From Candidatus Poribacteria bacterium (GTDB lineage: Bacteria > Poribacteria > WGA-4E > WGA-3G), in NCBI GenBank assembly GCA_965205015.1, contig OZ242029.1, positions 960,001 through 1,024,000 on the forward strand: a stretch of DNA of 64,000 bases, given 5' to 3'. The notes under the pieces were generated by a model. The model saw nothing but the letters and a program-made list of their open reading frames with translations. It was not told the origin of the DNA and made no database searches. A program made the translations under genes and the position numbers. This document shows, in pieces, positions 13,870-29,223 of the stretch; the stretch's first letter is position 1; the number at the start of each line of letters is the position of its first letter.

Positions 13870-15570
13870 ATGACCTTATACCGTTTTTGGCGAGGTAGCG
13901 GTGGCACATCTGAAAATGCGCCTGCCGACTACTTCCTACATCGTTGTAAAAAGTTACGATATAGAAATTCAGTACGCCCTGGCTTGGTAAGCCTTTTTGT
14001 TGTATTCACAGGTATCTTTTGCCTTTCTGCAGAGGCTTACATAAAAGGCCCTTGGCTATGGATGATTGCCAAAGGTGCAGATATAGATAACGATCAGTTG
14101 GCTGTCGCAAGTAAGGGCACGGTCACTGAAAACCTTGTCGCCGCATACGGTGTAAACGAAGGAGATAGCGTAGGACAGTTGCAATGGACACGCGGGCGGA
14201 TTTTCCCAGAAATCGACTGCTTATTCTGGCAGTGGGGCTGCTACTCGGATAATGTTAACAGGGTCGTCAATAGGATAGGGTTGAGCAACGACCGGGGGTT
14301 GAATCGCCATTCTGCGTACGCTTTAATTAACATCCGCTCCTCGCGAGAACGCAGAAACGTCGCGATGGGGGTCGGGAGTGATGACGCTGTTAAAGTTTGG
14401 CTCAACGGTCAAGTGGTCCATATAAACAGGGTGGACAGAGCCACAACGGGCATTCAAGACCTATTTCGCGTCAATCTGAAAGTCGGGGACAACCTTCTCC
14501 TCGTTAAAGTAAGCGATAATCTATGGAATTGGGGGATGTTCTTCGATATCTATCTTGAGAAGGACGATTTTAGCACCGCTCTCCCTATGAGGACTTCCGA
14601 TACTTCCCTCGCTATACACCTGTTTCAAAAATACAGTGCCACGCTCCAAGATCCGGAGATTCAGAAAGTGTTTCCGACTGTATTGACGCGGTTTCAAGAA
14701 CCGGAGATACAAGCTCTTTTGACCCCTTTTACAATAAACACTGTTGCTGAGAATCCAGACATCCTCACACAGTTCGGTGTGTCGGAGAAAACGATAAGGT
14801 TCATTAAAGGAAATGCCGGTGTCCGCGCGATGCTCCGCGATCCAGACTTTCAAACGTTGTTGCAAAATCGGAATGCTTTATCAGAATTCGCGGCACTCGT
14901 TACTGGCGAGGAACTTACCGTTCTTCCTAAAGAACGCTCTTTAGCTGCAGATGTTGATGGAAACGGAGCTGTAAATATCCTGGACCTCGTGCGCATTGCA
15001 ACGCGCGTAGGTCGAACAGGTCCTGATCCTGCGGATGTGAACCGTGATGGCACCGTTAATATTCGTGATATTGTCTTGGCTGCAGCCTTAATGGGTACGG
15101 AAGCAGCCGCCCCTTCTGCTTTTGCTGGGATAGGAGCAGCCCCCAGTCACCCGCCCCTACGCCCTGAAGACATCCAACTTTGGCTGACACAAATCCAACG
15201 CGTTGACTTGCGCGATCCGACCTTCCAAAGAGGGGTAAGAGTCCTAAAGCACCTGATGGAGATGTTGACACCGAAAAAGACAGGACTTCTGCCCAATTAT
15301 CCCAATCCATTCAACCCTGAAACATGGATACCGTATCAACTCTCTAAACCTGCTGATGTTACAGTGACTATCTATGCCGCGAACGGCACTTTGGTCCGCA
15401 CCTTGGTGTTAGGACATCAACCCGCGGGTATATACCAGAACCGTAGTCGTGCAGCACACTGGGACGGCAAAAACGAATTCGGTGAGCCTGTAGCGAGTGG
15501 GGTCTATTTCTATACACTCAAGGTCTCTGGGGAATTCACTGCCACTCGCAAAATGTTCATACGGAAGTAG
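13870..15570 (+). CDS. Exported protein: N-terminal beta domain, dockerin-like EF-hand pair, C-terminal FlgD-Ig/T9SS-type CTD
   Basis: GSDDAVKVWLNG; DVDGNGAVNILDL and DVNRDGTVNIRDI; NYPNPFNPETWIPY...SGVYFY. True start may be downstream. Confidence 0.82.
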   Translation: MTLYRFWRGSGGTSENAPADYFLHRCKKLRYRNSVRPGLVSLFVVFTGIFCLSAEAYIKGPWLWMIAKGADIDNDQLAVASKGTVTENLVAAYGVNEGDSVGQLQWTRGRIFPEIDCLFWQWGCYSDNVNRVVNRIGLSNDRGLNRHSAYALINIRSSRERRNVAMGVGSDDAVKVWLNGQVVHINRVDRATTGIQDLFRVNLKVGDNLLLVKVSDNLWNWGMFFDIYLEKDDFSTALPMRTSDTSLAIHLFQKYSATLQDPEIQKVFPTVLTRFQEPEIQALLTPFTINTVAENPDILTQFGVSEKTIRFIKGNAGVRAMLRDPDFQTLLQNRNALSEFAALVTGEELTVLPKERSLAADVDGNGAVNILDLVRIATRVGRTGPDPADVNRDGTVNIRDIVLAAALMGTEAAAPSAFAGIGAAPSHPPLRPEDIQLWLTQIQRVDLRDPTFQRGVRVLKHLMEMLTPKKTGLLPNYPNPFNPETWIPYQLSKPADVTVTIYAANGTLVRTLVLGHQPAGIYQNRSRAAHWDGKNEFGEPVASGVYFYTLKVSGEFTATRKMFIRK

Positions 15571-15999
15571 CGAGCAGCTGTCAGCGAAGGGCATCGTTTT
15601 GTCTGAGTCTCAGATTGACACAGATTACACAGATGAATGCGGATTCTCTTTCCTCTATAGGAGCAACTTTCCCCACGCGACCGTATCCCTGTATACACGT
15701 ATACACCTTTATCAGACCTTCTATGAAAAACGACTTGGCGTCACTAAACACACAAAATTCTTTTTTCCCGTGATGTAACGTTTTGCCTGAAAATTGTGTC
15801 TTTAATAGAGTAAGTTCAACTTAAGGATTCAGAGAAGTTCGAGACGGCATTTCTATCTATCGCTAATTTGATAACAGATATATTCCCACAGTATGCGTCT
15901 TGGTATTGTGTCTCACTTTCGTTCAATTGAATCTACACTAGGAACCAATTGCTTATACCGAGCTCGCGTTAATATATACCCAAAAAAGGGGACCCTCTC

Positions 16000-21124: not shown

Positions 21125-22000
21125 CTACCTTACAGAAGTTGCCCACCGATTTGGACCAGGACCGGGCTGATGTTCATCACGAACGCGCTTAAATTCCTCA
21201 GGCGTCGTAACAACATCCTCGGGATGCAACCGACTCCGCGCGAGAAAGCCTGCTTCCGGTTGATAGCCGGTCGGTTTCGACGCATCTTGATAGCGGGAAT
21301 CAACACTCCATCGGACCTGGTGACTGACATTCGGAATGGAGCGGTGCGGGGTCAGATTGGTAAGTAGAAGTATGCTGCCAAACTTGACAGGGACCACTAC
21401 CGGATCAACTTCGGGCAATTCGTCCTGTGGAATTTCAAGATAGAAACGTTCAGAGTGACGATGCCGGAAAACACCATCCCGATGGGCATGCGGGATGACT
21501 TCCAAACATCCGTTCTCCACGGTAGCATCTATCAATGGAATCCAAATTGTGAGCTGCAAGACAGAATCGCATTTAGGTTCCATATAGCCAGCGTCCTGAT
21601 GCCACGGGACGAGCGTCCGATCGTGTTCAGGGAGTTTCGGACGCACCCGATATGCTGGGTGACACATAATCTCCGGTCCAACGAGCGACTCGGCAAGGTC
21701 AAGCAACTTCGGATGACTAAGTAGATCAAAGAGTGCCGGTCCCGTGTGTGCACCACTGAACACCTTCTGGAACACGACCGGCGACTGCGCCGTAATTTTT
21801 GCCAAACGGGTGTCAAACCCTTCCGTTTTGAATTCGGAGTCAATTTCACCGTCCGCGTAGAGTTCCGATGCGCCAGTGTCGACAATTTCCTCAAACTCTG
21901 CGATCAGTGGGTTCAGGTCGTCCGGTGCCAAGGCATCTTCGATGAGTAGATAGCCGTTTTCATTAAAATCGTGGATTTGCGAATTGGTTAATGCTTTCAT
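21125..22000 (-). CDS. PhyH family dioxygenase
   Basis: F.ENGYL, PWHQDAG, NGCLEVIP, PHRS, RWSVD.RY; start at MKALT. Confidence 0.9.
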   Translation of the reverse strand: MKALTNSQIHDFNENGYLLIEDALAPDDLNPLIAEFEEIVDTGASELYADGEIDSEFKTEGFDTRLAKITAQSPVVFQKVFSGAHTGPALFDLLSHPKLLDLAESLVGPEIMCHPAYRVRPKLPEHDRTLVPWHQDAGYMEPKCDSVLQLTIWIPLIDATVENGCLEVIPHAHRDGVFRHRHSERFYLEIPQDELPEVDPVVVPVKFGSILLLTNLTPHRSIPNVSHQVRWSVDSRYQDASKPTGYQPEAGFLARSRLHPEDVVTTPEEFKRVRDEHQPGPGPNRWATSVR

Positions 22001-22405
22001 AATTTTTATAAGAGGGTTTTGCTTTATTGCGTTGTTCTTCGTTGACGAACCCATTTTTGATGAAGTGTGAGTGCTGACATCTTTGACAGTTCATCGTCTG
22101 TGCCTCCTGAAGCCAGCGTTCTTTTTTTATGAGGATACCAGATCAATTGATATGCGTCAAGTGAAAAATTAGTTTGATTTTTTTGATATTTTTTTTAAAT
22201 TTGTTATTCTTTAGACGAATACAATTGGATGTGATATATTAGTGTTGGTTGGGGAAACACCCAAGCAAAAATGCCGTACTGTATCGTCGAAAAAAGACGT
22301 GAAACCCAATAATTTCTTAAAATTGAATGGTTCTAACAAAAAGTTAACGTTAACGGGAATTTGACTTGTAAAATCCTATTACACCGCTAAAAGGAGAAAA
22401 TTCTA

Positions 22406-24916
22406 ATGAAAAAAATGCTGCTTTCTATATTTCTAACGCATATTATCGTTTCAACACTTTTGCTATCAAACGCCTTTGCACAAGACGACACAACGTGGTA
22501 CCTACCCGAAGGTGCCAAAGCCCGGTTCGGTAAAGGTAGTGTGGCGGAGATAAAGTATTCCCCAGATGGTGCCCGTTTAGCAGTTGCGAGTGGTATCGGT
22601 ATTTGGCTTTATGATGCGGAGACCTATCAAGCGTTATCCCTACTCACAGGGCATACGCGTCCGGTTATTAGCGTAGCATTCAGTCCAGATGGGAAGATGC
22701 TTGCAAGTGGGAGTGAGGATCGCACGGTCCGTTTATGGGATGCGTTGACAGGTGAACAAAAACAGACACTCACAGGGCATGCGCATTGGGTCGCTAGTGT
22801 AGCGTTCAGTCCAGATGGGCAGACCCTCGCAAGTGGCAGTTGGGATAAGACGGTCCGTTTATGGGATGCGTTGACAGGTGAACACAAGCAAACACTCACA
22901 GGACATACGTATGCGGTCTATAGTGTAGCGTTCAGTCCAGATGGGCAGACCCTCGCAAGTGGCAGTGACGACACGGTCCATTTATGGGATGCGTTGACGG
23001 GTGAACAAAAACAGACACTCACAGGGCATATGCGTTCTTTGAGGAGCGTAGCGTTCAGTCCAGATGGGCAGACCCTCGCAAGTGGGGATTGGTACGGCGT
23101 GACCAATTTATGGGATGCGTTGACAGGTGAACACAAGCAAACAGCCACAGGTGGTCGGTGTTGGGTCGTTAGCGAAGTATCGTTCAGTCCGGATGGAGGG
23201 ACACTCGCAAGTGCGGGAGGTTTTGTGCGCGGTGCTATCGATTTATGGGATGCGTTGACAGGTGGATATAAGCAAACACTCACAGGGCATATAAGTACGG
23301 TCTATAGTGTAGCGTTCAGTCCCGATGGGCAAACCCTCGCAAGTAGTGCTGCGGATGGTACGATTCGTTTCTGGGATGCGTTGACAGGTGAACACAAGCA
23401 AACACTCACAGGACATACGTATGAGGTCTATAATGTAGCGTTCAGTCCAGATGGCAAGACGCTTGCAAGTACAAACTACACGACTATCCGTTTATGGGAT
23501 GCATTGACGGGTGAACAAAAACAGACACTCATAGGGGATATAAATTTTTTGGACACCGTAGCGTTCAGTCCCGATGGGCAAATCCTCGCAAGTGGGGATC
23601 GTAGTCGCATTGTGTTTTTGTGGGATGTGTTGACGGGTGAACGAAAACAAATACCCGCACCAATACTCACAGAGCATCTAAGTACGACCCGTAGTGTAGC
23701 GTTCAGTCCCGATGGGCAAACCCTCGCAAGTAGCAGTGGGGATAAGACGGTCCGTTTATGGGATGTGTTGACGGGTGAACAAAAACAGACACTCACAGGA
23801 CATACGCATGCGGTCCATAATGTAGCGTTCAGTCCCGATGGGCAAACCCTCGCAAGTGGCAGTGGGGATAAGACGGTCCGTTTATGGGATGTGTTGACGG
23901 GTGAACAAAAACAAATACTCACAGGGCATACAAGTTCGCTCCTTAGTGTAGCGTTCAGTCCCGATGGGCAAACCCTCGCAAGTGGCAGTGGGGATAAGAC
24001 GGTCCGTTTATGGGATGTGTTGACGGGTGAACAAAAGCAAACACTCACAGGGCATATAAGTACGGTCTATAGTGTAGCGTTCAGTCCCGATGGGCAAACC
24101 CTCGCAAGTAGCGGTTATGTTAGGATTCGTTTATGGGATGTGTTGACGGGTGAACCAAAACAAATACTCACAGGGCATACACGTACGGTCCTTAGTGTAG
24201 CGTTCAGTCCCGATGGGCAAACCCTCGCAAGTGGCAGTGAGGATGGCACTGTGCTTTTGTGGGATGTTACGCCTTTTTCCACAAAGCCTGATTCCGTGTA
24301 TCCTGTATGGGATGTAAATGAGGATGGTCAAATCAACATATTGGATTTGGTTGCTGTGGCACAAAACCTCGAAAAACCTTTAACAGTGAACCCACGGGCA
24401 GATGTGAACAGTGATAATAGTATCAATATTTTAGACTTAGTGCTTGTCTCGCAACATTTGGGCGGATCAACACGTGCTGCTCCTACAAGTATTGTCAGAT
24501 TAGATCTTGACCCGGTACGCGTTGAAGGGTGGTTAGCACTGGCGCGGATTGAAAACGACGGTTCTTTAGCATTCCGACAAGGTATAGCGAATCTGGAACG
24601 GCTTTTAGCATCGCTGATCCCGGAAGAAACAGGACTCTTGCCAAACTACCCCAATCCCTTCAACCCGGAAACGTGGATACCGTATCAGTTGGCAAAATTT
24701 ACAGCGGTTAGCATCTCTATTTATGCTGCCAATGGGCACTTGGTTCGGAGGTTAGACTTAGGGCATCAACCTGCGGGTTTATATAAATCACGTAGCCGTG
24801 CAGCGTATTGGGATGGTAAAAACGATCTCGGTGAGCCTATTGCGAGCGGCGTGTATTTCTATTCATTTACTGCTGGGGATTTCACCGCAACGCGGAAGAT
24901 GCTGATACGGAAATAG
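22406..24916 (+). CDS. Exported WD40-repeat protein with dockerin-like domain and FlgD-Ig/T9SS-type CTD
   Basis: About 14 near-identical ~126-nt repeats; DVNEDGQINILDL; NYPNPFNPETWIPY. Confidence 0.92.
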   Translation: MKKMLLSIFLTHIIVSTLLLSNAFAQDDTTWYLPEGAKARFGKGSVAEIKYSPDGARLAVASGIGIWLYDAETYQALSLLTGHTRPVISVAFSPDGKMLASGSEDRTVRLWDALTGEQKQTLTGHAHWVASVAFSPDGQTLASGSWDKTVRLWDALTGEHKQTLTGHTYAVYSVAFSPDGQTLASGSDDTVHLWDALTGEQKQTLTGHMRSLRSVAFSPDGQTLASGDWYGVTNLWDALTGEHKQTATGGRCWVVSEVSFSPDGGTLASAGGFVRGAIDLWDALTGGYKQTLTGHISTVYSVAFSPDGQTLASSAADGTIRFWDALTGEHKQTLTGHTYEVYNVAFSPDGKTLASTNYTTIRLWDALTGEQKQTLIGDINFLDTVAFSPDGQILASGDRSRIVFLWDVLTGERKQIPAPILTEHLSTTRSVAFSPDGQTLASSSGDKTVRLWDVLTGEQKQTLTGHTHAVHNVAFSPDGQTLASGSGDKTVRLWDVLTGEQKQILTGHTSSLLSVAFSPDGQTLASGSGDKTVRLWDVLTGEQKQTLTGHISTVYSVAFSPDGQTLASSGYVRIRLWDVLTGEPKQILTGHTRTVLSVAFSPDGQTLASGSEDGTVLLWDVTPFSTKPDSVYPVWDVNEDGQINILDLVAVAQNLEKPLTVNPRADVNSDNSINILDLVLVSQHLGGSTRAAPTSIVRLDLDPVRVEGWLALARIENDGSLAFRQGIANLERLLASLIPEETGLLPNYPNPFNPETWIPYQLAKFTAVSISIYAANGHLVRRLDLGHQPAGLYKSRSRAAYWDGKNDLGEPIASGVYFYSFTAGDFTATRKMLIRK

Positions 24917-25052
24917 TATCATATGACCATAGGAGTGCTGGGATGCTGATGTCTATTAGCTTCCCAGCGATCACTGATGAGTGGAAATGATGTGCTTGCA
25001 GGCACATTTGCTTGAAGTATAACAATACGGGTAAGGGGTGTCAACCCTATTT

Positions 25053-25910
25053 TCAACGGATCTGCTCCTTTTTTACTAAGTTTTCATCCATGGTTTTGAG
25101 TTGATCCTCTGGAATGAGGTCGAGATATTGAGTAATAACGCGTCTCGAAAGTCGTGTAATCTGTGAGATTTCGTCAATATCTGCGGTCGCTCTGCGAACG
25201 ACTTTCACCGACTCATAATCCCGGATGTATCGGTCAACAGCCTCCTTGGAGTGCTTGGTCTTGGCAGCAATAGTTGGGGTGAGATACCCTTGAAGATAGA
25301 GGGTGATGATCTCTCTCTTGTGGGTAATCGCCCCCGATAGGTCGTGGATATTGCCCCGAGTGGGTAAGATGTCTCCTGTGGTTCTCTGCCATTCATTGAC
25401 GTAGTCCTGGACGACAGCATCACAGACATTGAGCAAAACTGCCAAGTCGAGTTGCGTCAATAAGGCGCCCTGGTCATAAGCTTGATGACACCAGCGGACC
25501 AAGCGATTGATCCGGAGTTGCCGGGAGGTAAACCCGTTGCGAAACGATTCAACATCCTCTGTAGCAAGATAGGTCAGGAGGATGGGTTTCATACGGGTCT
25601 TGATGATCGCTTTGCCTCTTTCTGGGTATTCATCAATCGGCACCGCCATCCAGACGAGTTGTCCATAGCGGAGGTATCGCTCCTCGGGGAGTTCGTCGCC
25701 CGTGGCAAGTTTCTCCAAAGGGAGGGTAATGACGAAATACTCCTCAACAGTCTTGAGGATATCCTCAACAATAGCAGTCGCAGTGACTTCGCCTTTATCA
25801 TACCCGTAGTCATTCAAAAAGCGATGGATGAGCAACTGTCGTAGGGATTTATCGTTGATGCGTCTGAACTTCTTCTCGTTGATTTGCGTGCGCGTCAAAG
25901 GCTTGCTCAT
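25053..25910 (-). CDS. DUF1670-like HTH-containing protein
   Basis: AYDQGALLTQLDLAVLL, PTRGNIHDLSGAITHK, TKHSKEAVDRYIRDY match the DUF1670 pattern as I recall it. Confidence 0.8.
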   Translation of the reverse strand: MSKPLTRTQINEKKFRRINDKSLRQLLIHRFLNDYGYDKGEVTATAIVEDILKTVEEYFVITLPLEKLATGDELPEERYLRYGQLVWMAVPIDEYPERGKAIIKTRMKPILLTYLATEDVESFRNGFTSRQLRINRLVRWCHQAYDQGALLTQLDLAVLLNVCDAVVQDYVNEWQRTTGDILPTRGNIHDLSGAITHKREIITLYLQGYLTPTIAAKTKHSKEAVDRYIRDYESVKVVRRATADIDEISQITRLSRRVITQYLDLIPEDQLKTMDENLVKKEQIR

Positions 25911-26707
25911 CGGAGATCCCCCTTTTTTTCCTCCATGGGTTCGGGGTGAAGCAGCTGGGTCATGCGATCGGTGTCTTGGTATTGCTCATACAGCGAGAGA
26001 TACTCGCGAATGAGGCGGTCCGAGAGGTGGGTGATCAGGCGTATCTGTCCCCTCGGGAAGTCTTGGTGATGGAGCGTGGCGACCTGTGTGAAGTCTCTGA
26101 GGTAGCGGTAGATGGCGCGTTCGGAGTGGTTGGTCTTTTGCTCAATCTCGGTGAAGGTGTAGTCCTTGAAATACAAATCGAGAATCTGCGTCTTGTGAGA
26201 CAGTCCCGGTCCCATGTCGTGTTTCGCCCCGCGCGTCATGACGAAATACCCGTCCTGCTTCAAGGCGCGGATGTCGCGTTTGACGTTTGCCGGACTCGTG
26301 GTGAGTAAGATGGCTAAATCTTCATAACTCAGCAAGGCGTCTTGGTCATAAGCCTCTTTGGTCAATCGCAGGATGCGGTGGCGTCTGAGGCCTGCCAGAC
26401 CATAACTCGCTAAGACTTCGAAGTCTTCTTCGACCTCATTGAGCGTCAGTCGACAGGAGACTTTCTTCGCTAAAGCGATGTGTTTCCCTGCGGGTTCTTC
26501 GGCAGCGACCGCCTCGTAGCAGATCTGTCCTGAGGTAAGTTGGATATCGGCGTGTTGTTCGAAGTAGGTAGAAATCTGCTTATAGTAGGCTTCGGCCATT
26601 ATAGGTGCCAGATGAAAGTCTGCGGCGATCTTCTGAATGATAGCAGCTCTGGCGTTCTTGGATTCGAGGCGTTTGATACCGTAGGCGGTATCTTTCTTAG
26701 GATTCAT
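25907..26707 (-). CDS. DUF1670-like HTH-containing protein (upstream paralog)
   Basis: AYDQDALLSYEDLAILL, TRGAKHDMGPGLSHK, TNHSERAIYRYLRDF; GGAGG SD before ATG 26707; ATGA overlap with downstream paralog. Confidence 0.8.
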   Translation of the reverse strand: MNPKKDTAYGIKRLESKNARAAIIQKIAADFHLAPIMAEAYYKQISTYFEQHADIQLTSGQICYEAVAAEEPAGKHIALAKKVSCRLTLNEVEEDFEVLASYGLAGLRRHRILRLTKEAYDQDALLSYEDLAILLTTSPANVKRDIRALKQDGYFVMTRGAKHDMGPGLSHKTQILDLYFKDYTFTEIEQKTNHSERAIYRYLRDFTQVATLHHQDFPRGQIRLITHLSDRLIREYLSLYEQYQDTDRMTQLLHPEPMEEKKGDLR

Positions 26708-26954
26708 AGTGACCTCCATGAGGTGAGTCTTGGTGATGAAAATACATCTACCTGTTAGGTGAACTCATACTATCAGTATAAATCCTATGGTCATTTGATA
26801 CAAACTATAAGTAGATACAAAGTGTATTTGTCGTCTATTATATTTATTTTCTCCGAGTGCCCGGTAGGTCGCTCGGACAGTAGTCTGCTCGTTAGGTTTC
26901 ACTGTGTTTAACCCAACCTGCTTAATTGACAACTATGGTGCGGTTAGATGAAGT

Positions 26955-27380
26955 TTAAAAATTAACTTGGACCAATTCAACCAGAATGCCATCTGGGTCC
27001 CTCGCGCACGCAACGCCCACTGCGTCCGGTGCGCCTATAGGTTCAGACAGAAATTCAACACCGTTCTGTTTTAAGGCTTCGACGGTTCCCTGAATATCTT
27101 CTACAAAAAAGGTAAGCCAGCGGACACCCGCTGCGAATTCACCCGTGGGTGTCGGCGGAGGCGATTCAATATCCATGAGTTTGATAAGTGTGTTACCGGC
27201 TTTAAGCCGGACCTGACGAAAACCTGTCGGCGCAAGCCCTACACCGCGGGCAAGGTCATCTGGAATTTCCAACTCCAGCACGATCTCCAGCCCCAATTTG
27301 TTGTGATAGAAGTCCAGCGAGGCTTCAAAGTCGCTACAGGTAATAGCAATGTCAATAGTGGGATGCGATAGGTTTAGCAC
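26955..27380 (-). CDS. VOC/glyoxalase family protein
   Basis: DFEASLDFY...LG, RDPDGILVELVQ. Confidence 0.88.
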   Translation of the reverse strand: MLNLSHPTIDIAITCSDFEASLDFYHNKLGLEIVLELEIPDDLARGVGLAPTGFRQVRLKAGNTLIKLMDIESPPPTPTGEFAAGVRWLTFFVEDIQGTVEALKQNGVEFLSEPIGAPDAVGVACARDPDGILVELVQVNF

Positions 27381-27386
27381 GAATTT

Positions 27387-29219
27387 CTAACCTCCAGTCA
27401 GAACGAAGATTGCTTCTCGAAATTGACCGAGTGGACGTGTGTCATAGGTAATGTCCACTGGAACGACAATTCTCTTTCCCAAAGCGTCACGACGTATCGG
27501 TATTGGAACGGAAAAATCGATGTGACCATCTGATCGCGCTGGAATCGTTGCTTCCGCCGGGGGAAGCTCCATATTCCATGCGCTCGGAAGAATCGGTTGG
27601 GCAATTGCCGTACATGGTTCAGACGAATGATTCGTTATCTCCACGCTTAGCTGTGCCGTTTCCCCAAGTGCGATCTCCTGTTCATAAGGATAACACCGGA
27701 TCCAATGTTCATCCATGCCGTAATTGGCGTGGTCCCAAGGGAAAAGGGCAGTATAGCATTTTTCACGTTCGGCAAGTATGTCCAGCATACACTGAATCTC
27801 AGCGTCAGTAAAATCAAAGGCTGGATCGACATGACAATTAAAGATATGCGTCGGTTCGAGCTGCTGAATACGCCGCAGACATTTCTCGTAACCGACATCT
27901 TTGCCGAGCAAATTCCGATTTCCGGAACAATAGTCGTCTATTCCCGCCATTGTGAAGGAGTCACCTGCAAAAAACATCCGAACACCGCGTCCCTCAACGA
28001 GAAGTCCACCGTGATAATAGGTCTGTCCCGGGAAATGGTATGCCGTCATTGTGAACTCATTCCACTGCCAAGAGTCCGCATCACGGGTAATGCGATCCAC
28101 TCGGGTAACCGAAGGTGAAATACAGGGAAGCCGGAAACCGATTGGATTTGTGATGACACGTGCGACAACCGAATCCGTTATCGTTTCACACGGGAAAGTT
28201 GTCTGAAATTCAGGGATAGCATCAACGTGATCGTCGTGGTAGTGCGTCACCCAAAACTGGGTGACCTCTGAAATTTCGCCGTCTGCTTGCAGCTGTTGGA
28301 TCTGTTTGATAACATTCGGTGAGCCGCAATCCATCACGAATGCTTCACCGTTTTCGGAAATAATCATCCACGTTGTGCCGAAATGACGCAGGAATTCGGG
28401 GGGTGGCTTGCCTTCTCGGATAGGCATGTGTCCCGCGCGTCCCTCAAATTCAGCAAAGAGTTTCGGGAAATAGTGCCGGAGGGCGGAGATTGAGACGTAT
28501 CTATCGTAACAGTGTGCTAACTGCTGTAGGAGCGAATCGATTGCCCTGTCTGGGTTGTTCATAACAACACCGTGCGTGGGAATAAGTGCCGTTGGCGATA
28601 CCCGACGGACTTTCTCAAGACTCCCAGTGAGTTCATCGCGTGCACCGAGAAATCCGTGATAGTCGCTCGTTTGCTGTCCTTTTTGTAAACTGTAGAGTTC
28701 CCACAACTGCCCCTCGTCATAAATGAGATCGCCGGAGAAGGCGAATCGCTCCCCATCAACATCAACGAGATAAGTGACGCTTCCATCGGTATGCCCTGGT
28801 GTTTCAAGGACTGTCAAGGCTGCCGGACCCCATTCAAACTGCACACCGTCGGCATACGTATCCGTCCCAGGGACAGCATTGGCGAGCATGAGATTGTGAG
28901 GGTGATAATTATAGAGATGCCATCGATATTGCGGATCGTTCCAAAAGGTCTCAACCTCGCCAAACCACGCCGCCTCTTTCGCTGGAACGCCGACGCGAAC
29001 ATTATCAGGCATTCGGAAGCCTGCAGTGTTATCTCGATGGTGATGCGTAAACAGAATCTGTTCAACGTCAGTGATCCCGATTTCCGCGAGTGTGGTACAG
29101 AGAGTAGTGCCACTCGGATCAATGAGGAGTGCGCGGCCGCCATCCCGGAGAATACCTGTGTTGACATGCCCGTGATGAACGTATAGGTGATGGCTGAGTT
29201 GAGAAAAGCGAGATTGCAC
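27387..29219 (-). CDS. Tandem metallo-beta-lactamase-fold hydrolase
   Basis: THHHRDN, TPGHTDG, FSGD, second THYHDDH; start taken at GTG 29219 to avoid overlap with relE. Confidence 0.82.
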   Translation of the reverse strand: MQSRFSQLSHHLYVHHGHVNTGILRDGGRALLIDPSGTTLCTTLAEIGITDVEQILFTHHHRDNTAGFRMPDNVRVGVPAKEAAWFGEVETFWNDPQYRWHLYNYHPHNLMLANAVPGTDTYADGVQFEWGPAALTVLETPGHTDGSVTYLVDVDGERFAFSGDLIYDEGQLWELYSLQKGQQTSDYHGFLGARDELTGSLEKVRRVSPTALIPTHGVVMNNPDRAIDSLLQQLAHCYDRYVSISALRHYFPKLFAEFEGRAGHMPIREGKPPPEFLRHFGTTWMIISENGEAFVMDCGSPNVIKQIQQLQADGEISEVTQFWVTHYHDDHVDAIPEFQTTFPCETITDSVVARVITNPIGFRLPCISPSVTRVDRITRDADSWQWNEFTMTAYHFPGQTYYHGGLLVEGRGVRMFFAGDSFTMAGIDDYCSGNRNLLGKDVGYEKCLRRIQQLEPTHIFNCHVDPAFDFTDAEIQCMLDILAEREKCYTALFPWDHANYGMDEHWIRCYPYEQEIALGETAQLSVEITNHSSEPCTAIAQPILPSAWNMELPPAEATIPARSDGHIDFSVPIPIRRDALGKRIVVPVDITYDTRPLGQFREAIFVLTGG

Positions 29220-29223
29220 TGTA

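Follow-up and report, generated by a model that had tools for sequence, protein, structure and literature searches.

A mobile unit that carries only a pair of DUF1670 genes and inserts at the ends of sorting-domain genes in Poribacteria

The DNA analysed here, hereafter denoted the window, is a stretch of 64,000 nucleotides from a Candidatus Poribacteria bacterium (assembly GCA_965205015.1, contig OZ242029.1, positions 960,001 to 1,024,000 of the forward strand; positions below are those of the window). At the 3′ end of a gene for a WD40-repeat protein it contains a unit of 1,896 bp bounded by inverted repeats, in which the only open reading frames (ORFs) are two overlapping paralogous genes of the DUF1670 family, here called A and B. 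The unit is a mobile element, present in multiple copies and recently mobile, and it inserts site- and orientation-specifically at ...AA|RTAR, nearly always the last lysine codon and stop codon of a gene with a terminal type A sorting domain of type IX secretion. Since it encodes only two related DNA-binding proteins of unassigned function, inserts exactly and rebuilds the stop codon, its movement probably depends on machinery as yet undescribed. We regard it as an evenly balanced proposition that this is an active, probably autonomous insertion sequence (IS) of an undescribed family in sponge-associated Poribacteria, with the DUF1670 pair as its recombination machinery. An earlier note, made from the letters of the window, had proposed a mobile unit carrying nothing but this pair, and the multiple copies, the empty sites and the lack of any other ORF bear it out.

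Copies, empty sites and target of the element

The inverted repeat is real: its arms at 24916–24934 and 26783–26801 are 95% complementary across 19 nt, and the core pattern of the repeat occurs at only two places in the window, a number of matches reached by none of 100 shuffles. The outer limits of these arms, taken in the earlier note as the ends of the element, are off by 3 and 7 bases; the alignment of 72 copies, together with two comparisons of an occupied with an empty site, places the ends at 24913 and 26808, with termini ATAG...CTAT and inverted repeats of 22 and 26 nt that differ by a 4-nt indel between the arms (Table 1). When the window element and its flanks are compared with the relative loci by BLAST, similarity begins about 12 nt beyond the right end at 26801, and on the opposite side it often runs on into the flank.

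Copies were surveyed by searching with protein B against one genome per species, and the counts accordingly derive from relatives. Of the 123 stretches that encode relatives of the protein, the best 80 loci were retained; 79 of them carry the title Poribacteria, the protein identity is 81–92%, and a single genome holds up to about 20 loci. Both ends of the element are present in 72 copies at these loci, with a length of 1.8–2.1 kb and unrelated far-side flanks. Within a genome, copies are up to 100% identical in five of the seven genome groups. Both ORFs are full length in 57 of the 72 copies (counted from the ORF listing), and substitutions between copies fall on third codon positions 4–7 times more often than on second positions. 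At the level of the phylum, PF07900 (the Pfam entry for DUF1670) is present in 12 of 41 sampled genomes, mostly with even numbers of matches.

The repeat core behaves as the mark of one type of element. It occurs 7–19 times per strand in the five genomes scanned, against 0–1 times for a reversed control, and its matches pair almost solely at a spacing of 1.8–2.1 kb; no larger element with other cargo that shares the terminal repeats was found in these five genomes. One pair, at 0.43 kb, belongs to a copy with an internal deletion, and solo remnants occur as well. The deleted copy (L126, G044:C3:93300-95400, ~821–1259) measures 441 bp, stands at the end of a sorting-domain gene, resembles a miniature inverted-repeat transposable element, and retains 151 nt of the near (gene-proximal) end and 293 nt of the far end. 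At another locus (L127, G047:C1:2962000-2967500) three solo remnants of the near end, 32–73 nt long, lie within 4 kb.

The earlier note had suggested a search for further copies and for empty sites, and two comparisons with empty sites stand next to the 72 bounded copies. The flanks of the occupied locus L009 match locus L090 of a related genome at 96% and 84% identity, and the two flank alignments overlap by 5 nt in L090, from which it follows that the element is absent there. In gene orientation the empty site of L090 reads ...GATTCTG AAG TAA TTTGCG..., whilst the occupied L009 reads ...GATTCTG AA-ATAG TATCA... at the gene-side junction and ...GATACAAACTAT-AA G TAA TTTGCG... at the far junction. 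A second case, L123 and L125 versus L007, has the same geometry with more diverged flanks. For L010 and L005 an orthologous site was not found, and no empty allele of the window's own site was found in the five relatives searched. In the orthologous region of these relatives the whole block 22007–26963 (the WD40 gene with the element) is missing, and the neighbours corresponding to 21141–22006 and 26964–29221 stand about 130 bp apart. Among contigs assembled from public sequencing runs (Logan), one of 5.9 kb from run X1 spans 24894–27900 and represents the occupied form.

With these data an immobile, conserved pair of transcription regulators adjoining sorting-domain genes has next to no probability. 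The proteins do resemble regulators of the helix-turn-helix (HTH) type, but the 72 bounded copies have unrelated far flanks, identical copies occupy different loci, presence across genomes is patchy, and the empty sites together with the structure of the copies refute such an arrangement.

The two junctions define the site of insertion closely. The dinucleotide on the gene side is A at 69 of 71 and 71 of 71 sites for its two positions, and that on the far side is A at 71 of 71 and 69 of 71. The earlier note had seen no target-site duplication; AA in fact flanks both ends of the window element (24911–24912 and 26809–26810), as at 69–71 of the 71 sites, and it is either duplicated target sequence of 2 bp or the 2-bp core of a crossover. 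Beyond AA the far junction continues with R (G 47, A 22), T (68), A (64) and R (A 46, G 23; n = 71), after which the sequence is random; upstream of the insertion the pattern is AARATGNTNAT-N4-AA. The earlier note had also described an att-like dyad formed by TGATAC (24903–24908) with GTATCA of the element. The host hexamer is indeed present in the window, but the dyad is not a general feature: across the 71 sites position −6 is A in 26 and T in 33, and position −5 is C in 40.

The 90 codons 5′ of each insertion were translated (71 flanks, judged by eye). A sorting-domain peptide (...ASGxYFYxL...TRKMxIxK) terminates 64 of the 71 flanks, six of these being truncated remnants; among the remaining seven, five still close with a lysine codon and stop, and L001 and L021 have one odd flank in common. 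In the window, the C-terminus of the WD40 protein matches TIGR04183, the sorting domain of the type IX secretion system (T9SS), with 33.1 bits (cut-off 23) and FlgD_ig with 35.8 bits (cut-off 27). All copies are inserted in the same orientation relative to their target, the DUF1670 genes and the target gene being convergent. At sorting-domain gene ends of these loci that lack the element the sequence is mostly AAGTAR, and at occupied ends it is always AAATAG, as expected if A-TAG is supplied by the element. The element thus lies inside the last lysine codon, and because its own terminal A-TAG recreates lysine and stop, the target gene is undamaged. Precise removal of the window element would restore CGG AAG TAG, the lysine codon and stop at 26809–26814 being the original ones, and not CGG AAA TAA as the earlier note had it. 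The window has another gene end with this sorting-domain tail, ...CGGAAGTAG (~15525–15572), at which no element is inserted.

Several further observations concern the loci themselves. The sequence ...GAAGATGTTGATAC-AAACTAT-AAATAA at the end of a sorting-domain gene in L013 (~52–110) fuses the gene to the terminal 7 nt of the element's far end, apparently through a deletion between direct TTGATAC repeats, and is possibly the footprint of an excision. The copies L027/L028, L039/L045 and L040/L045 have one flank in common and the other different, which suggests either recombination between copies or ambiguity of assembly at repeats. No match to P0001 (protein B) was found on plasmids by tblastn, and no viral contig was found in the scans with distant DUF1670 members. 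Adjacent to the element in the window, just 3′ of a minus-strand gene of the glyoxalase family, the short sequence at 26912–26971 is a small dispersed repeat that is found at many positions of related genomes, with up to 14 short matches (82–95% identity) in one of them.

Table 1. Positions of the element, its genes and its target in the window
Feature	Position	Strand	Remarks
Insertion sequence proper	24913..26808	(-)	genes on minus strand; defined by 72 copies in differing flanks and by empty sites
AA, gene-side dinucleotide copy	24911..24912	(+)	with the element's ATAG gives the new AAA TAG (Lys-stop) of the WD40 gene
AAG TAG	26809..26814	(+)	original last Lys codon and stop of the WD40 gene, moved to the far junction
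AA, far-side dinucleotide copy	26809-26810		within the displaced AAG TAG
Near-end (gene-proximal) terminal inverted repeat	24913..24934	(+)	ATAG + TATCATATGACCATAGGA
Far-end terminal inverted repeat	26783..26808	(-)	ATAG + TTTG + TATCAAATGACCATAGGA; TTTG is a 4-nt insertion relative to the other arm
ORF A (P0002), DUF1670 paralogue A	25907..26719	(-)	270 aa
ORF B (P0001), DUF1670 paralogue B	25053..25910	(-)	285 aa; start overlaps stop of A through ATGA
Target gene, WD40-repeat protein	22406..24916	(+)	836 aa
T9SS type A sorting / FlgD-Ig-like C-terminal domain of the WD40 protein	~24647-24913		last ~90 residues
Predicted sigma-70-type promoter, TTGACA-17-TATACT	25016..25044	(-)	near-consensus; TG before −10; 11/12 consensus matches
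Hairpin GCTGGGA...TCCCAGC	24937..24968	(-)	downstream of the outward promoter; plausible, not proven
Internal segment GATGCTGATGTCTATTAG	24942..24959	(+)	resembles target end GATGCTGATACGGAAATAG (24898-24916); conserved in aligned copies

The DUF1670 proteins

P0001 and P0002 are full-length DUF1670 proteins that match the Pfam family with E-values of 1e-61 and 7.5e-60 (208.4 and 202.5 bits; curated cut-off 25 bits) and are 29% identical to each other, in agreement with the earlier description of two DUF1670 paralogues overlapping in ATGA. The family is large: in a scan of 1.84 billion representatives, DUF1670 accounts for 1,021 clusters (clusters at 50% identity) at E ≤ 0.001, 546 at E ≤ 1e-10 and 60 at E ≤ 1e-30. 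In the ESM Atlas the clusters come from several bacterial phyla and from methanogens, and Methanosarcina acetivorans, the control genome of the phylum survey, likewise has a match to PF07900.

The two paralogues occur together far beyond the copies described above. Scanning metagenomes with a member that has about 30% identity to B yielded 26 loci, which represent two further lineages at about 30% protein identity; at all 20 loci that cover both genes A lies directly upstream of B, overlapping it or separated by at most ~280 bp. One lineage, about 30% identical in protein, has the ends ATAGTGCCAYRTGACC and GGTCAGGTGGCACTAT, of the same format as ATAGTATCAAATGACC of the window element, and the third has a repeated unit of 1.78 kb, 82–97% identical between contigs with differing flanks, that terminates in a palindrome containing TGTCAAATGACA. 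The earlier note had suggested looking for terminal repeats around DUF1670 pairs elsewhere; in both of these lineages the pair does lie inside repeated units, of 1.8–2.0 kb, with related inverted repeats, and the repeat core CA-N2-3-TGAC is common to all three lineages. In a tree of 13 A and 13 B proteins the A/B split has a support of 99/97 and the three lineages branch alike in each half, which indicates that the duplication predates the lineages and that A and B have travelled together since. There are also natural fusions of two or three DUF1670 units (P0014, 932 aa; P0069, 532 aa; P0116, 521 aa). A and B are thus ancient, co-evolving paralogues that behave as one unit.

The 3′ ends of a group of elements named after P0138 (L097–L113, L121 and L122; e.g. 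L105:5620–5660) hold a hypervariable stretch of 5–6 nt, flanked by the inner repeat (...GGCACTAT) on one side and by an outer tip, (A/G)TTTAAT, on the other. The inner 40 nt are identical among several of these copies, and the 5′ end is constant (ATTAAATATRT-ATAG...). A palindromic ATTAAA...TTTAAT target for this group was considered and dropped, there being no unoccupied ATTAAA-N6-16-TTTAAT motif in 86.5 kb of flanks.

Conservation within the family centres on three residues. H197, H220 and Y228 (P0001 numbering) are invariant among 74 aligned family members, and G83, L112, R139, A144, Q147, L151, P183, G186, D190, G192, K198 and Y262 are at least 90% conserved; the motifs listed in the earlier note, with P183, G186, D190, G192 and K198 around the invariant residues, are thereby upheld. 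The two histidines and the tyrosine are likewise invariant in the 58 rows of an alignment headed by paralogue A (P0002, another 15 ORFs of A type from the three lineages, and 42 representatives from the search with B), and conservation of R185 and K198 is high in both paralogues.

An AlphaFold model of P0001 built on the 74-row alignment has a predicted local distance difference test score (pLDDT) of 87, as against 36 for the single-sequence model. It places three helices and two strands in a small N-terminal domain (residues 1–125), followed by a winged HTH (128–192), an HTH (193–245) and a third helical, HTH-like unit (245–285). All three invariant residues belong to the second HTH of this model: H197 stands where helix 1 begins, H220 lies in the turn and Y228 on the recognition helix (helix 3).

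Searches by structure and by profile return DNA-binding folds. Foldseek against the PDB gives nothing at E ≤ 0.001 and weak rows to Pax paired domains. In a structural search against representatives, which barely sampled the N-terminal domain, the top Z is 5.8 and the rows are HTH or winged-HTH proteins (NiaR, sigma region 4, DesR, a resolvase HTH, the Topo VI-A winged helix) apart from one, the vaccinia type IB topoisomerase (1a41; Z 4.9, root-mean-square deviation 4.9 Å), which ties with unrelated neighbouring rows. A search of the ESM Atlas with residues 1–126 gave no usable match, and the family profile against PDB sequences only a ‘CAP repeat’ chain (E 9e-4), with nothing relevant. The 25 most frequent of the 84 Pfam families matched by the 74 members are all DUF1670 or of HTH type, with weak matches to HTH_23 (31 members), HTH_29 (31), HTH_28 (25) and HTH_7 (4). 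The NCBI family models include IS families, and NCBIfam gives the proteins no IS-family match; PADLOC gives none at all and PHROGs only weak regulator matches to A. The predicted complex of A with B (median 0.26 versus a mark of 0.32) is evidence neither way.

The same searches bear on the known classes of transposase and recombinase. No DDE family is among the 25 most frequent Pfam families of the 74 members, a search in which the N-terminal domain was not treated alone, and the P0001 model has only 2 short strands to set beside an RNase H-like fold; the short AA on both sides (69–71 of 71 sites) is compatible with DDE enzymes and not specific to them. The catalytic domain of resolvases has no Pfam match, and the fold search yields only the HTH of Tn3 resolvase (Z 4.8). 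Neither Y1_Tnp nor a Rep family is matched, and no HUH fold appears in the structural search. A DEDD transposase of the IS110/IS1111 type is not encoded in the element. As the earlier note had stated, no known transposase family is detected in the pair by the libraries and searches used.

The earlier note had likened the R...H...H-x7-Y arrangement to the active site of a tyrosine recombinase, envisaging a heteromeric A/B enzyme that carries out exchange at the att-like dyad. Tyrosine recombinases and type IB topoisomerases have the catalytic set R-K-H-R-H/W-Y, and tyrosine recombinases use an overlap, or crossover region, of 6–8 bp. The invariance of H197, H220 and Y228 and the high conservation of R185 and K198 in both paralogues are what such an enzyme would have, as is a conservative-looking, site- and orientation-specific insertion with almost no duplication. 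However, in the model the conserved residues fall on a canonical three-helix HTH and not on the tyrosine-recombinase fold; no tyrosine-recombinase or type IB topoisomerase row stands above unrelated ones in the fold search, which barely sampled the N-terminal 125 residues, and Foldseek has none at E ≤ 0.001; Phage_integrase of Pfam has no match among the 74 members at E ≤ 0.1; and the junctions and the empty site have only AA, 2 bp, in common, with the TGATAC/GTATCA dyad absent from most sites. Because the invariant motif lies in the second HTH, the analogy is unsupported, and we consider this chemistry highly improbable. The proposal of a heteromeric recombinase pair accordingly survives in part, as an ancient co-evolving unit with fused forms, and is not sustained in respect of tyrosine-recombinase-type chemistry.

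A different possibility is that the DUF1670 pair constitutes only a DNA-recognition module, for binding the ends and choosing the target, which recruits a host or trans-acting nuclease or recombinase in the manner of Xer-dependent integrative elements. Only HTH-type domains are recognised in the proteins, the invariant residues sit in an HTH, and the repeat core is conserved alongside them across lineages, as expected for residues that read DNA. Against this, DUF1670 spans many phyla of Bacteria and Archaea, which means that the host partner would need to be near-universal; no second type of element with these repeats exists in the five genomes; and insertion occurs at dozens of gene ends, not at one chromosomal site. 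On balance we judge recruitment of a foreign enzyme rather unlikely.

The non-coding end and the proposed mechanism

The predicted promoter in the non-coding end starts just after the stop codon of ORF B and points outward, through the near-end repeat, into the antisense strand of the WD40 gene. Every copy that has both ends contains a matching promoter string, one of the matches (in L065) being false. On the simplest reading the promoter would drive the A–B operon across joined ends. A second candidate for an operon promoter, TTGTAT-17-TATACT inside the far-end repeat, was read by eye, is not listed by the promoter scan and is given no weight.

Less likely, the promoter would serve a guide or antisense RNA that covers the region 24913–25009. 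In its fullest form this alternative would have a small RNA, transcribed from behind ORF B, steer the DUF1670 proteins to the sorting-domain ends; the RNA would span the near-end repeat and complement the target-like segment, and read-through would yield antisense of the current flank, in loose analogy to the bridge or seeker RNAs of IS110/IS1111. The promoter, with 11 of 12 consensus positions and its recurrence in the copies (save the one false match), suits this idea, as does the conserved segment 24942–24959, which, like the target end, contains GATGCTGAT and a tail that ends in TAG. The 100–135 nt downstream of the promoter contain a 5′ hairpin and a second hairpin (GCUGGGA...UCCCAGC), and single-sequence folds are more stable than shuffles in four of seven sequences (z −2.7 to −3.9). 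RNAalifold, however, finds no consensus structure (−1.44 kcal/mol, 0 compensatory pairs); when the hairpin is specified, from a structure derived from one sequence, 85% of cells are paired, with 1 pair showing a double change; and Rfam has no match in the whole window. In addition, elements of the P0138 group have only ~25–35 nt after ORF B, too short for such an RNA inside the element. We therefore rate RNA-guided choice of target as improbable.

Returning to the DUF1670 pair as the machinery of movement, the proposed sequence of events is as follows. A and B would act together as a heteromer, whose HTH-type domains (three in each protein) may bind the two-part repeats at the termini, bring the ends together and recognise the target. 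Strand breakage and joining would take place with a 2-bp offset at AA. A catalytic centre would reside in the pair itself, candidates being the invariant His, His and Tyr together with Arg, Asp and Lys residues whose conservation reaches 90% or more in one or both alignments. The element would pass through a joined-ends (circular) form, in which the outward promoter could read across the junction into the A–B operon. That the pair itself is the catalytic agent, counting within this the highly improbable tyrosine-recombinase-like version, has in our estimate slightly less than an even chance. The more specific proposal, that the A/B heteromer is a transposase or recombinase of an undescribed class, built essentially of HTH domains and performing orientation-specific insertion with a 2-bp offset, is put forward tentatively, as one that we consider possible and would not call probable.

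Several points weigh against this assignment. A catalytic fold is not recognised: residues 128–285, as modelled, would form three HTH-type domains, and the invariant His, His and Tyr of the second HTH could merely read the repeat sequence and take no part in chemistry. A host nuclease that has escaped recognition could equally have produced the AA at the junctions as a target duplication. The outward promoter is a prediction from a consensus match, conserved across the copies. Excision or joined-end junctions, which the earlier note had proposed to seek in reads, were not seen in the assembled contigs of four public runs (X1, X2, X4 and X5), where rare forms would not be visible, and the pattern of joined ends occurs 0 times in five genomes.

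Significance and comparison with known systems

To our knowledge, only a handful of enzyme classes that move DNA are known, and here a precise, recently active element encodes just two HTH-rich paralogues of a domain of unassigned function. Either the chemistry of DUF1670 is that of a new kind of recombinase, or DUF1670 enlists an enzyme of the host for multi-site transposition in a way that is itself new; a two-gene system of 1.9 kb allows both alternatives to be tested. If the pair is a new class of enzyme, the 1,021 DUF1670 clusters of Bacteria and Archaea would mark a large, overlooked family of site-specific ISs. A function would thereby be given to a widespread domain, and the repeat-driven assembly breaks and rearrangements in Poribacteria genomes would be explained. 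Insertion in one orientation at a defined motif, with the last codon and stop rebuilt, may also be of interest for programmable, non-disruptive insertion of DNA. No paper in the library searched mentions DUF1670 or PF07900, and topical searches of listings and abstracts found nothing on an element of this kind.

The element has the defining protein feature of none of the families compared below, and we rate it as lying outside the known IS families, ISfinder not being among the comparisons. It resembles IS630/Tc1-mariner in being short and bounded by terminal inverted repeats, in the 2-bp sequence at both junctions and in a tandem-HTH module for end binding, a likeness that is based on the weak HTH_23/28/29 matches in Pfam and the weak Pax rows of Foldseek. 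It differs in that no DDE or RNase H-like domain is detected, that two separate paralogous proteins are encoded, that the dinucleotide is AA and not TA, and that insertion is strictly oriented at one gene-end motif.

Like IS110/IS1111 elements, it inserts with specificity of site and orientation and duplicates little or nothing, and it has a non-coding end of considerable size and a promoter close to one of its ends. That family, as outlined in bioRxiv 10.1101/2024.04.26.591405, combines a DEDD transposase with a bridge or seeker RNA. In the present element no DEDD transposase is encoded, true terminal repeats run to the tips and no RNA structure is supported. The 2-bp identical core would fit the 2-bp staggered crossover of IS607 and other serine-recombinase elements, and there is a weak likeness to the resolvase HTH, but neither Pfam nor the fold search finds a resolvase catalytic domain. 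As in IS200/IS605 elements (HUH), insertion occurs in one orientation beside a short specific motif with essentially no duplication; the ends of those elements are subterminal hairpins, whereas here inverted repeats extend to the tips and no HUH/Y1 domain is detected.

Integrative elements at gene 3′ ends, for example those of tRNA genes, have a tyrosine or serine integrase and use one attachment site. Like them, the element carries a copy of the gene terminus that it displaces (here A-TAG) and so keeps its target intact, but it is an IS of 1.9 kb spread over dozens of paralogous gene ends. Finally, ISs that target repetitive extragenic palindromic (REP) sequences use repeated sequences as targets, and the present element likewise has as its target a repeated, conserved sequence family of the genome; that target is the coding end of the T9SS sorting domain, and the proteins are unrelated. 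The IS1202 subgroup, which abuts XerCD sites as outlined in bioRxiv 10.1101/2022.12.17.520857, belongs with these ISs and differs from the present element in the same two respects.

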